From Candidatus Bathyarchaeota archaeon (GTDB taxonomy: Archaea > Thermoproteota > Bathyarchaeia > Bathyarchaeales > Bathycorpusculaceae), in assembly GCA_963833575.1 (NCBI GenBank), contig CAWHXY010000004.1, forward strand, positions 1,122,197 through 1,186,196: a stretch of 64,000 nt of DNA, in the 5' to 3' direction. The position numbers and the translations under genes are program-made. The notes beneath the pieces are model-generated. The model had not been told where the DNA came from. It ran no database searches and worked only from the letters and a program-made list of their open reading frames with translations. Of the stretch, positions 6,200 through 40,490 are shown piece after piece. The stretch's first letter is position 1. The number at the start of each line of letters is the position of its first letter.

Positions 6200-6928
6200 A
6201 TGTCAGTGTTTGCAGCCCCAGGAGCTTATGACCGTGCAATAACCGTTTTCTCACCTGATGGAAGGCTTTTCCAAGTTGAATACGCTATGGAATTAGTGAA
6301 TCGTGGAGCCACCATTTTAGGTATCCAATCTCCAGAAGGTTTAGTGCTTGGTTCAGAAGAAAATATTGAAGTCCTTGAAGAAGCAGGTTACTCGTGGAAA
6401 ATCTTCAGGGTAGATGACCATATTGGTGCAGCCATAGTTGGTTTAAGTTCAGACGCCCGAATACTCATTGATCAAGCAAGAATATACGCTCAAAGTAACA
6501 AACTAACTTACGATGAACCCATAGATGTAGAAGTAGTAACTAAACGTATCTGCGACATCCAGCAAATGTATACACAGCATGCAGGTGTTAGACCCTTCGG
6601 TGTTTCAATAATTTTCGGGGGCGTAGACAAAACTGGAACAAGAGTTTTCGGTACACATCCCAGCGGAACATATAGAGGATACAAAGCCACAGCATTAGGT
6701 GCAGGAAGAGAAACGGTTCTGTCAATCCTGAAGGAAGAATACAACGAAGACCTAACTTTAAACAAAAGCATCAAACTCGCAGTAAAATGCCTTGTGAAAG
6801 CCTTGGAAGCAAGACAGTTGCCGCCAAGAATAAAAATCGCAGTCATACCTGTAGCAACCAAGAAACTAGAAATGTTAAGCGATGAAACCGTAGAAGGCTA
6901 CATCAAAGAGCTGGGTTCAAGCAAGTGA
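6200..6928 (+). CDS. psmA: Proteasome alpha subunit
   Basis: [20 protein letters not shown] signature. Confidence 0.97.
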
Positions 6929-16792: not shown

Positions 16793-17151
16793 AGGAAACT
16801 AATAGTACAAACCCAGAATTGATCACGCTTATCCGTCTTCTAAAGAAAGAAAGTAGAGAAAAACAAGCAGGCATCTGGCTAGACATAGCTGAATACCTTT
16901 CTAAAACACGTAGTCAACGCATCTCTGTTAACTTGAGCACTGTAAACAGGAATACAAAGCGAAGTGATGTGGTTGTGGTTCCAGGCAAACTTCTGGGGTC
17001 AGGCAGTATAGACCATGCAGTAACAGTAGCGGCATTTGGTGCTTCCCAGAAAGCGAAAGATAAGCTTTTTGTTGCAAAAGCAAAATACCTTTCAATTCCT
17101 GAGCTCATGGAGAAGAATCCTAAGGGCGCAAACGTAAGAATTATTCGGTGA
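16789..17151 (+). CDS. rpl18e: 50S ribosomal protein L18e
   Basis: TNPEL, VNLS and VVVPGKLLGSG. Confidence 0.96.
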   Translation: MKETNSTNPELITLIRLLKKESREKQAGIWLDIAEYLSKTRSQRISVNLSTVNRNTKRSDVVVVPGKLLGSGSIDHAVTVAAFGASQKAKDKLFVAKAKYLSIPELMEKNPKGANVRIIR

Positions 17152-17597
17152 AAAAAATGCAAACAATAAAACCCACAGTAGTAAATGCTGAAGGATTAAT
17201 AGTTGGTCGAATGTGCAGCAAAGTTGCCAAACGATTACTAAATGGCGAAGAAGTCATTATTCTTAATGCTGAAAAAGCAGTGTTTTCAGGTAAAAAGAAA
17301 AGCAAAATCTTAGAAGCTCATATATTCCTTGAAGTTGGCGCTCCAGAACGAGGTCCATTCCATTATCGAAGACCTGACCGTTTTCTACGAAAAACCGTAA
17401 GAGGTATGGTTCCGTTCAAGCAGCCTAAAGGCAAAAACGCTTACAAAAGGCTAAAAGTATTCATGGGTGTACCTCTTGAGCTTAAAAATCAACAAATGAT
17501 TACATTCGAAGAAGCTTCATCTGCCAATCTGAAGGGTCCACATTTTACCCTTGGAGAATTAGCAAAAGAAATCGGATGGAGAAACAGGATGGAATAA
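17148..17597 (+). CDS. rpl13: 50S ribosomal protein L13
   Basis: GRMCSKVAKRLL and RPDRFLRKTVRGM. Confidence 0.96.
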   Translation: MKKMQTIKPTVVNAEGLIVGRMCSKVAKRLLNGEEVIILNAEKAVFSGKKKSKILEAHIFLEVGAPERGPFHYRRPDRFLRKTVRGMVPFKQPKGKNAYKRLKVFMGVPLELKNQQMITFEEASSANLKGPHFTLGELAKEIGWRNRME

Positions 17598-26032: not shown

Positions 26033-26386
26033 TTAGGTTTCTTCATCAACATTTAAGAACTGTTTTATCTTTGCCATAATTTCCTGCAAACACTTCTGCG
26101 TGAGAGGGGGGTCATAAGGGATTCGGAGCACATCCCAACCTTGCAACTCCAAAAGCTCATCAATTTCACTGTCACGCGCTAATTGTTTATCTTTGCGATG
26201 AACGGGATTACCATCAAGATAAACAATTTTTCTTTTTTCAACCCAGCAAAAGTCAGGAACGGTAGATTTCAAAATAATAGGTTTTTGTGTAATCATACCG
26301 TTCGTTAATCCAACAATGCTTAGTGTTTGGAAAACAGCCATTTCTGCTTGGCTGACTCTAGGATGCATGTTTGCTTTGTAACTCAA
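26033..26386 (-). CDS. Vsr/DUF559-like PD-(D/E)xK endonuclease
   Basis: SQAE, PDF, IVYLDGNPVH and D..L..QGWDVLRI motifs. Confidence 0.75.
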   Translation of the reverse strand: MSYKANMHPRVSQAEMAVFQTLSIVGLTNGMITQKPIILKSTVPDFCWVEKRKIVYLDGNPVHRKDKQLARDSEIDELLELQGWDVLRIPYDPPLTQKCLQEIMAKIKQFLNVDEET

Positions 26387-26876
26387 CTTGCATTCACTAC
26401 CTTTGCGAGCACCTACTCAAGCGACTATGAAACGAGTCGACTCATACTGATCCTCGGAAAAGATCGTTCACGTGCGGCACGTTTAAAGAAAATAGTGGAT
26501 GAGCCAATTGTAGCTTTAAAGATTAAACTTTGAGACATTCTTTTTGTTCTTCCTGCTTATAGACAAAACAGGAATACATTTCTAACCCTATTTAAAGCGT
26601 TGGAGAAACGACATCATCGACCAGGGGAGGGTATAGTAAAAGTGAAAAAGCATAAACCCTTTAGGCATAGGTGCTTGTTTGATTTCTTTTTTTGTCTAAG
26701 AATTTTGGTTGCTAAGTAATAATAAAGGTCATTGTAAATATTTGGACAGCAATATCTCCTATATACATGGTGGCCATGTTAAAGGGAAAAAAAACAGATA
26801 CAAACATAACGCTAAGACTTCTTAAGCGCCTCTAAAGGCCAATAATAAATTCTATACTGAAAAGCGATGTATTAAG

Positions 26877-27034
26877 TGCAAGAAATAACTAGAAGGAGGC
26901 TTGGCGGATCGCTCATGTTAATCCAAGTCGCGAACCAAAATGAGACCTGATTTCTCAGGCTGTGGCGATTCGCGTCCCGTTTAACGGCTGACCAGCCAAG
27001 CATGGGTGTACCTCTTGGATGGCTATTTCTCGCA
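26877..27034 (-). ncRNA. Orphan structured RNA of about 155 nt with a cloverleaf-like core
   Basis: 13-bp terminal stem with G-U pairs on the minus strand, inner 7-bp GCUUGGC/GCCAAGC stem, GAAA tetraloop hairpin, TATA TTTATA at 27061-27056. Confidence 0.65.
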
Positions 27035-27163
27035 AATTAACAACTCGTTACCAAGTATAAATGGAATTGTGGTTGTATTGAGTCAACAACAAGCATGCAA
27101 GCTTTAGTTTGGATTTAAAGTCAAAAGTGTTAAATGATTAGGAAGGAGCGCTTACTTCCAGGA

Positions 27164-27379
27164 TTATGCGGATATTACTTCTTCTTGTTCTTCCAAAACT
27201 AAGGGCATAATTCTTATTTGATCATTTTCAGGTAGCTTATACTTAGTTTTGCTCGTCCTCTTTTCTTCCCCAATGCAGGACATACAGAATCCCATCAAGA
27301 AAATGCACATTAACAATGGAAGAAGCATAATCGTTAAGCCTTTGCTTCTTTTACGAGTTTGAGCTATCAAACTTTGCAC
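27164..27379 (-). CDS. Small single-TM membrane protein
   Basis: Hydrophobic segment preceded by basic residues; SD-like gagga upstream. Confidence 0.5.
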   Translation of the reverse strand: MQSLIAQTRKRSKGLTIMLLPLLMCIFLMGFCMSCIGEEKRTSKTKYKLPENDQIRIMPLVLEEQEEVISA

Positions 27380-36541: not shown

Positions 36542-36618
36542 TGGAGCCTCGAGCGGGCCTTGCTCCCGCGGCCTGCTGCTTACAAGGCAGCCGCTCTACT
36601 GGGCTGAGCTATCGAGGC
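36542..36618 (-). tRNA. tRNA-Thr(TGT) with atypical D- and T-loops; CCA encoded
   Basis: GCCTCGA/TCGAGGC acceptor stem, GCTC/GAGC D-stem, GCTGC-CTTGTAA-GCAGC anticodon arm, T-arm GCGGG-AGCAAGG-CCCGC. Confidence 0.88.
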
Positions 36619-37052: not shown

Positions 37053-37259
37053 TAATGCAATTCAGCAATATGGGTTATACCATTAAACTGATGCAACTCC
37101 CCATCAACATCGATGTGGAGTGAAGGGTGAAATGACTTCGCCAAGTCACGGCGGAGATCACAATGACACCATGCATAGGTCAAACAAACAACGACGCAAC
37201 ACAATAAATTAACGAGAAATGTGTGTTTCATCAAACGCCAAACAAACACCACCTATGGC
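37053..37259 (+). other. 23S pre-rRNA 5' leader and processing stem (pairs with about 40280-40377)
   Basis: gagaaatgtgtg..aaacacca pairs with tggtgttt..cacatgtttctc; atgcataggtcaaacaa pairs with ttgtttggcctatgcgt; TATA-like cttatat near 37030. Confidence 0.7.
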
Positions 37260-40278
<3,019 letters not shown>

Positions 40279-40490
40279 CCTCTAGATGGTGTTTGAGCGA
40301 TATTTGGTGCGCACATGTTTCTCAATATGTGTTGATAAGTTCTTGTTTGGCCTATGCGTGGCGAACATATTGCATTTTGGTTTCTTCATTTTTGGTTAAT
40401 CGATTCTCTGTAAGTTGAATTTTTGATCATGCGTTTCGCTTTTTTGATGTTAGATAAATTCAAATTGTCATTTTGCTAATGGCTTCTTGA

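Follow-up and report, generated by a model that had tools for sequence, protein, structure and literature searches.

What is the GC-rich island that lies on the minus strand at 26877–27034 of a 64,000-nucleotide (nt) stretch of DNA from a Candidatus Bathyarchaeota archaeon (the window; assembly GCA_963833575.1, contig CAWHXY010000004.1, positions 1,122,197 to 1,186,196)? A reading made from the sequence alone (the sequence-only reading) took it for an independently transcribed structured RNA, drew in it a four-way junction like that of a transfer RNA (tRNA) inside a 13-base-pair (bp) closing stem, and raised the possibilities of a tRNA mimic and of a link to the downstream gene for a DUF559 nuclease. 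The gene is real, noncoding, conserved and strand-specific, with a rod fold, and we are highly confident that its product is a genuine structured noncoding RNA folded in this way. It is a member of an undescribed RNA family found only in Bathyarchaeia, in which we call it the A type. Independent transcription as a structured RNA is supported by a conserved promoter, by covariation, by the lack of any Rfam or tRNA match and by contigs from RNA libraries; the cloverleaf gives way to a different fold.

A rod rather than a cloverleaf

The 171-nt stretch folds with a minimum free energy of −60.3 kcal/mol, compared with a mean of −40.5 kcal/mol for shuffled sequences (z = −5.1), and none of 200 shuffles folds as well. 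The minimum-energy fold of the source sequence is one long hairpin with no four-way junction, and 27 of 28 orthologues, folded singly, also give one long hairpin. From its base upwards the rod consists of helix P1 (12 bp), a bulged A, P1b (2 bp), P2 (5 bp, GUUAA/UUAAC), P3 (13 bp), an internal loop and P4.

Pairing was assessed on a plain MAFFT alignment of 28 sequences (A1), with slid partners and 500 shuffles as controls, and on a model-fitted alignment of 37 sequences (A3), which leans towards the model. On A1, 89.8% of the rod cells pair (25–49% with slid partners) and 18 of the 49 pairs show double changes (6–10 when slid); none of the 500 shuffles reaches any of these measures. On A3, double changes occur in 31 of the 49 pairs, compared with 9–14 for slid partners. 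Helix 3 of this alignment (P1 with P1b) is 98.3% paired with double changes in nine of 14 pairs, and P2 is 95.1% paired with double changes in all five of its pairs, for example from GUUAA/UUAAC to GUGG/CCAU. At the third base pair of P4 (A3 columns 99/133) 17 rows have U-A, ten C-G and nine U-G. The parts of the RNA are as follows.

27002–27033, minus strand: near-invariant 5′ arm, containing AAAUAGCCAUCCAAGAGGUACACCC, defined by the identity of this 25-nt segment in 38 of 41 loci
26990–27001, minus strand: 5′ strand of P1, the sequence-conserved basal helix of 12 bp formed with 26899–26910; covariation on A3
26981–26988, minus strand: 5′ strands of P1b (GC) and P2 (GUUAA), after the bulged A; covariation in P2
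26967–26979, minus strand: 5′ strand of P3, 13 bp with 26924–26936; double changes in ten of 13 pairs on A3 (helices 5 and 6)
26946–26959, minus strand: P4, apical hairpin CCUGA-GAAA-UCAGG; in other species a longer stem with a loop of 7–8 nt
26924–26936, minus strand: 3′ strand of P3, after a conserved U-run (UUUUG), from the alignments
26911–26921, minus strand: 3′ strands of P2 (UUAAC) and P1b (GC), with a purine-rich bulge of 4 nt between them; covariation
26899–26910, minus strand: 3′ strand of P1; covariation on A1, on A3 and in the rod-specific comparison
27009–27025, minus strand: UAGCC and AGAGGUA, 5′ halves of two possible flank helices with 26886–26897; compatible pairing
26877–26897, minus strand: C/U-rich 3′ tail (CUCCUUCUAGUUA...), holding the 3′ halves of the possible flank helices, and also the extension of the closing stem that is peculiar to this genome

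The decisive comparison was restricted to the helices in which the rod and cloverleaf models differ, across the 28 orthologues. The rod-specific helices are 88.8% paired and show double changes in ten of 18 pairs, values that none of 500 shuffles reaches, whereas the D-like and T-like arms specific to the cloverleaf are 78.4% paired, a level reached by 226 of 500 shuffles, and show double changes in two of ten pairs. The tRNA-like four-way junction can be drawn in this one sequence; its specific arms do not covary, and the rod helices do. A tRNA-like drawing from a single sequence can mislead, and here the homologues decide for a different fold.

Other pairings fared variously. The closing stem UGCGAGAAAUAGC/GUUAUUUCUUGCA (27034–27022 with 26889–26877) does form 13 pairs here, at −16.3 kcal/mol, but it is not conserved: among 34 of the 41 loci (seven were left out where the anchor failed) the duplex reaches −10 kcal/mol or better in one, with a median of −4.65 kcal/mol, and the uninterrupted 13-bp stem is found only in the source genome. 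The proposed pseudoknot between AUGAG and CUCAU does no better than its controls (71.9% paired, reached by 53 of 500 shuffles; a slide of +2 gives 64%). A GNRA hairpin can be read here with its GAAA loop, but the loop is not kept elsewhere, being CAAU or a 7–8-nt loop on a longer stem. Outside the rod, the pairings UAGCC/GGUUA and AGAGGUA/UACUUUU are 89.0% pairable (30–53% when slid); no pair covaries because the 5′ side is invariant, and two flank helices are possible. A pairing noticed by eye between the 5′ arm (CCAU/CCCAU) and the purine bulge before P1b was rejected, the bulge varying without matching changes; in the C type of the family the same pairing fits at some loci and not at others, and the idea was dropped.

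The pairing also distinguishes the two strands. In the rod helices G-U pairs outnumber A-C pairs by 135 to 24 on A1 and by 167 to 33 on A3. The consensus fold energy of the A type is −22.0 kcal/mol on the forward strand and −10.1 kcal/mol on the reverse, and forward folds are also better in the C type (−28.9 versus −12.3) and the D type (−28.1 versus −20.9). In the source genome the covariance model scores 150.8 bits forward and 22.6 bits in reverse. The pairing is therefore that of an RNA, or of one specific strand, and not that of a DNA palindrome.

The gene and its signals

The element occupies a 777-bp gap between orf71, a small open reading frame (ORF; 27164–27379, with its stop at 27164), and the DUF559 gene (26033–26386, with its start at 26386); the neighbours at the locus are a Lon-like protease, orf71, DUF559 and a PhoU-domain protein. 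The description of a GC-enriched island in an AT-rich intergenic region is accurate, with a GC fraction of 0.50–0.53 across 26900–27049 and 0.31–0.38 in both flanks, and the TTTATA claimed at 27061–27056 is present. The signals around the gene are listed here.

27056–27070, minus strand: promoter, a stretch like a transcription factor B recognition element followed by a TATA box (ACAATTCCATTTATA); CATTTATA in 38 of 41 distinct orthologous loci
26860–27033, minus strand: predicted transcript of ~174 nt (the A-type rod RNA), its start taken from TATA spacing and invariance and its end from the T-run
26859–26864, minus strand: T-run CTTTTC, the likely terminator; T6 in many relatives
26841–26856, minus strand: second promoter-like box (TATAGAATTTATTATT), conserved as ..TATAGAATTTATTAAGG.. 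in most loci

In those 38 loci CATTTATA ends 22–24 nt before the G of GCGAG, and the remaining three have an A/T-rich variant at the same place. This spacing, together with the point at which invariance begins, suggests an RNA start near 27033; both transcript ends are predicted from the sequence. When ~100 nt downstream of the rod were scanned, a run of five or more T residues was found in 26 of the 41 loci and none in 15. The second box is the DUF559 promoter in most relatives, where it follows directly after the RNA. About 55 nt upstream of the inferred start, GCTTGTTGTTG at 27084–27094 (minus strand) is kept by almost every orthologous locus and may serve as a regulator site or mark where the orf71 transcript ends.

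A 48-codon frame in the element keeps its ATG in 19 of the 41 loci and has lost it in 22, and indels of 4–8 nt break the frame; the element is therefore noncoding. The coding reading was rejected for this frame and for a 26-codon frame with a TTG start, both being broken in relatives by lost starts, stops and indels.

Conservation within the genus and the relation to DUF559

A DNA search of 60 relatives found the A-type RNA in 27 of the 36 genomes of the same genus (E ≤ 5.4e-15) and in none of the 24 genomes from 11 other families of the order (E < 0.01); one further genome (G022), missed by this search, was added by the covariance model. The source genome (G000) has one full copy. The 25-nt segment in the 5′ arm is identical in 38 of the 41 distinct loci, with single substitutions in the other three, compared with 62–92% identity for the neighbouring protein genes across loci. 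A related motif, AGCCAUC...UACACC, is present in copies from two other genera. In one relative (L018:1516–1760, plus strand) the 3′ tail is tandemly repeated in units of ~34 nt of ..CACTTTTAGTTACCTCTTTACTTTGTTGCCTCTT.., and a record titled Limnocylindrales bacterium carries a full A-type rod RNA (L124:208–359, plus strand, 131 bits) on what is probably a mis-binned Bathyarchaeia contig.

DUF559 follows the RNA on the same strand in 28 of 28 loci; upstream, the Lon-like protease lies within 1.5 kb in 21 of the 28 and orf71 is present in 17. Copies in other genera and extra copies are not adjacent to DUF559, DUF559 has its own TATA-like box, and four members of the genus that are 93–97% complete (G006, G024, G036 and G100) have DUF559 while the covariance model, searched across their whole genomes, finds no RNA; a similar box stands upstream of DUF559 in the RNA-less locus L146. 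The link is one of genus-level gene order only. The association that the sequence-only reading called possible but unsupported holds as synteny within one genus, and there is no evidence of a functional tie.

The region between the RNA and DUF559 has features of its own. Extra sequence of ~370–470 nt (here 26387–26858, minus strand) occurs only in the source genome and its two closest relatives (L002 and L003). It follows directly on a promoter-like box, and within it a stretch of ~55 nt that ends in T8 (about 26785–26840) could be another small transcript. Also upstream of DUF559, at 26621–26646 (minus strand), is a C/U-rich element (..CACTTTTACTATACCCTCCCCTGG); L017, L021, L022 and L028 have similar sequence as the 3′ tail of their RNA, and the element is again found upstream of DUF559 in RNA-less members of the genus (L147–L149). 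At L146:1848–2280 in genome G024, upstream of DUF559, a sequence resembling the 5′ arm (..ACAGAGGTAACCC) is joined directly to one resembling the tail (TTTTTTTAGCC..); this junction may be an empty site, or the hairpin may have been lost from it precisely.

A Bathyarchaeia family with paralogous types

A first covariance model, made from the orthologues, gave weaker full-length matches in a second genus (two of six genomes) and a second copy in genome G013. Across 115 genomes from 11 other families this first model had a single match, flank-only and doubtful. A second model found a third genus and three copies each in G013 and G079; run on one genome from each of 40 genera in the family, it matched three genera. 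The source genome itself has two weak paralogues, at C7:263093–263232 and C7:288800–288891 (both plus strand; L086:1501–1640 and L087:1501–1592 in the locus set), which score 22.7 and 22.6 bits, respectively.

All copies have the base of the rod in common: on the outward strand UUGGCRRRUC, a bulged A, 2–3 nt and GUUAAC, and on the return strand GUUAAC, 5–6 nt and GRUYYGCCAA. A scan for this core pattern in one genome per species (185,579 species) returned 55 stretches, 44 of them in peat, bog, palsa and soil records with Bathyarchaeota or Bathyarchaeia in the title. The model also matches 46 of the 55; eight of the nine that it does not match are bacterial records, about the number that a hand estimate attributes to chance. 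Viral contigs gave no core-pattern match.

Each type keeps its own conserved 5′ flank, apical region and neighbours across species. The types other than A have long unpaired C/U-rich apical loops with CCUC or CUCC, where the A type has an apical hairpin instead, together with its C/U-rich 3′ tail. No neighbour is common to all types; those found are a ParB_N protein, a TFIIS-like zinc ribbon, TrmB, a histidine kinase, a MobA-like transferase and an ice-binding-like protein. The paralogue at C7:288800–288891, with the shared core and a long C/U-rich apical loop, is divergent from a ParB_N-domain gene, and the same arrangement is seen in L106 and L114. Two tandem copies ~180 nt apart occur at L109:6223–6380 and 6563–6665 (plus strand; contig C135 of G079); they are convergent with a conserved ORF of 125 amino acids that belongs to no Pfam family, and the same ORF adjoins a copy in L098.

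Presence in RNA libraries

Of the sequence words in a 1.2-kb region spanning the element, a small fraction occurs in six RNA-library runs from six studies of wetland and peat. Contigs of 84–213 nt from four runs of four studies cover 26870–27043; outside this interval only four short, imperfect pieces of 25–49 nt were found (26373–26407, 26625–26649, 26716–26754 and 27054–27102). The sparseness of contigs over the flanking genes is not evidence in itself, as most contigs come from relatives with diverged flanks. One run gave contigs with zero and one difference over 26911–26977 and 26948–27032, respectively, and adaptor sequence is present in two contigs of that run, at 26911 and at 27012. One RNA-library contig holds both the 5′ arm and the rod. 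The contigs show neither strand nor transcript ends; they are a sign that the RNA is present and not proof of a discrete transcript.

Comparison with known RNAs

At gathering scores, Rfam matches in the window are limited to a large-subunit ribosomal RNA (rRNA; 37256–40280) and one tRNA, with none on the element. At E values up to 10 there is no match on the strand of the element, the sole overlap being a chance-level hit to PYLIS_2 at 12.8 bits on the opposite strand, and at E values up to 1 there is none in seven homologous loci, so that no known family is matched. ARAGORN finds only tRNA-Thr (36542–36618) across the window. The sequence-only reading saw no signatures of ribonuclease P (RNase P), signal recognition particle (SRP) or 5S RNA; this is borne out, and the genome has copies of all three on other contigs, above cut-off (5S, RNase P and SRP RNAs at 73.3, 184.1 and 151.6 bits, respectively). 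A full-text search of the literature brought up no Bathyarchaeia-specific structured or small RNA in titles and the openings of abstracts; supplementary tables lie outside the reach of such a search.

Several known RNAs resemble the element in part. Y RNAs and YrlA RNAs are ~100–180 nt long, have several paralogues per genome and serve as handles for one protein; their basal helix is conserved in sequence and bulged, and their distal parts vary. The rod RNAs are likewise small paralogous RNAs with a conserved, bulged basal helix and variable distal parts, but they lack an Rfam match and the tRNA-like module of these Ro60-bound RNAs, and the 5′ and 3′ ends of the rod family do not form the conserved helix. 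A Y RNA identity was rejected: TROVE/Ro60 (PF05731) has no match in the source genome (94% complete), and the control was positive in two known genomes. 6S RNA is rod-like, ~180 nt long, with internal loops, and has paralogues in some bacteria. The element is of similar length and is also a rod with internal loops, but 6S RNA is bacterial and partners the sigma-70 holoenzyme, whereas the element has no Rfam match and its loops are small and asymmetric, with no large central bubble. Archaeal H/ACA small RNAs resemble the rod RNAs in forming hairpins interrupted by internal loops and in having more than one paralogue in a genome; H/ACA RNAs are defined by an ACA box directly 3′ of the basal stem and a kink-turn (K-turn) or K-loop in the upper stem. 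The element has no ACA box (the residues after P1 are C-CUC or C-CUA), the alignments reveal no K-turn, K-loop or tandem G-A motif, and the internal loops near its base are conserved rather than variable guide pockets. Identities as H/ACA, 6S or retron RNA were rejected because the defining features of those RNAs are absent.

In bacterial small RNAs of the RsaE/RoxS type, C-rich loops pair with Shine–Dalgarno regions. The non-A paralogues have long unpaired C/U-rich loops (CCUC/CUCC) on a stable stem, the A type has its C/U-rich tail, and the 3′ end of the 16S rRNA of the source genome reads ..CACCUCCU... The likeness involves no homology in sequence or structure, and the host is an archaeon.

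Proposed function and rival explanations

We tentatively favour an RNA that acts in trans and combines a handle for a shared protein with a working end that differs by type. Such an RNA would be stable; one protein common to all types would bind the shared basal module (P1 and P2) as its handle, and single-stranded parts particular to each type would confer specificity. In the A type this role would fall to the invariant 5′ arm (~32 nt, predicted to be single-stranded), which precedes the rod as the C/U-rich 3′ tail follows it, and in the other types to the long C/U-rich, anti-Shine–Dalgarno-like loops. The retention of helix sequence across paralogues suggests a reader of that sequence, the identity of the 5′ arm in 38 of the 41 loci suggests a specific partner, and the type-specific unpaired segments suggest different specificities on a common scaffold. 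It is more doubtful that the rod RNAs form a new class of archaeal ribonucleoprotein RNAs, with one dedicated protein on the P1–P2 handle and a different single-stranded end in each paralogue. If true, this would be a small regulatory RNA system of uncultured Bathyarchaeia of peat and soil, with no described archaeal counterpart.

Several observations weigh against this view of the gene and its role. The T-run is weak in the source genome (CTTTTC), one RNA-library contig continues 67 nt upstream of 27043 through the TATA region, and the contigs, which give no transcript ends or strand, are compatible with DNA carry-over. The RNA is not universal in the genus, the four near-complete members described above carrying the DUF559 locus with no copy. 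The B, C and D types are too similar within each type for covariation (0–1 pairs), and conservation of a helix across paralogues would also be expected of the terminal inverted repeats of a mobile element. Candidate targets of the 5′ arm fell away: a role as a guide for stable RNAs was rejected, the duplex energies of the 5′ arm with 16S, 23S, 5S, RNase P and SRP RNA all falling inside the range of 30 shuffles each, and the striking 17-nt complement to the arm in rpl13 (see below) is not conserved.

The main ordinary rival, which we consider improbable, would have a palindromic mobile element spread to several loci, where it was later retained or is now decaying: a relic or exapted miniature inverted-repeat element, in which the palindrome is one of DNA with terminal inverted repeats and the RNA is incidental. 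Like miniature inverted-repeat and repetitive extragenic palindromes, the family has a unit of 90–110 nt with conserved inverted ends at several loci. What the types share is exactly this hairpin, the flanks differing by locus; single genomes have several copies (in the source genome one strong and two weak, in G013 and G079 three each), and the arm-to-tail junction at L146 could be an empty site. Against it stand the excess of G-U over A-C pairs and the better forward folds of the A and C types; in addition, each type stays in the same syntenic place from species to species, between conserved flanks of its own, the changes in the A type are compensatory rather than signs of decay, and its flanking 25 nt are identical in 38 of the 41 loci and are represented, with the rod, in RNA-library contigs. 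Copy number is low, viral contigs give no match, inspection of the P1 borders by eye showed no target-site duplication, and the neighbours include no transposase, no genome-wide search having been made. A cis-acting leader or riboswitch that controls DUF559 through termination at the T-run would account for the co-directional DUF559 in all 28 loci, mostly within ~70 nt of the end of the blastn match, and for the T-run between the two. This is quite improbable, since a conserved TATA-like box separates the T-run from DUF559 and has a counterpart in RNA-less L146, ~470 nt of extra sequence intervene in the source genome, and neither the copies in other genera nor the other types are next to DUF559; several copies are not upstream of any co-directional gene, their neighbours being unrelated and sometimes convergent.

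The proposed tRNA mimic, a cloverleaf-like junction in the closing stem read by tRNA-processing or tRNA-binding proteins, is highly improbable. The source sequence does allow an acceptor-like stem of 7 bp to be drawn together with D-like and T-like arms and a further 7-bp arm, most of the cloverleaf-specific cells can pair across the orthologues, and P1 is a continuous helix of 12 bp, the length of the stacked acceptor and T stems of tRNA. Yet neither ARAGORN nor the Rfam tRNA model (RF00005) matches the element, the covariation and all but one of the single-sequence folds belong to the rod, and the position equated with U8 is paired within P1 in most species. Inspection of A1 for the consensus anticodon-, T- and D-loop residues of tRNA agreed with the sequence-only reading that anticodon loop and CCA are absent, and found that the T-loop is missing too; the element has none of the conserved loops of tRNA. 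Mimicry is thus not supported. Two further possibilities are barely credible. In one, the RNA would be an antisense regulator acting in trans on the messenger RNA of ribosomal protein L13 through the invariant 5′ arm, which has a perfect 17-nt complement (E = 0.004) at 17462–17478 (plus strand) inside rpl13 (17148–17597), 9.5 kb away. The complement lies deep in the coding region and differs at 1–6 of 17 positions in 29 other members of the genus, while the arm is invariant; it is probably a chance match, and the idea is largely refuted. In the other, the RNA would serve as template or scaffold in a system built on a reverse transcriptase (retron-like or not), a recombinase or a nuclease. The layout in the source genome resembles that of a retron RNA, with inverted repeats at the ends, an unpaired 5′ segment and a long hairpin, and proteins of nuclease fold adjoin two of the types (DUF559 the A type, the ParB_N protein the D type). 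But no reverse transcriptase, recombinase or TnpB/IscB-like gene is among the neighbours, which differ by type, and the closing repeats are found in one of the 34 loci.

Bathyarchaeia abound in peat, soil and sediment, and most of these archaea are uncultured. The rod RNAs add to them a new RNA family of a familiar general kind, which is suited to Rfam and would improve the annotation of Bathyarchaeia genomes; the family is an entry point to an archaeal RNA-binding protein or regulatory circuit.

Ribosomal RNA genes

The rRNA genes of the source genome are unlinked. The 23S gene lies in the window (37256–40280, plus strand) and is separated by ~1.1 Mb from the 16S gene (C4:51208–52702, minus strand), which the same contig carries, and the 5S gene is on a different contig (C6:191214–191333, minus strand).

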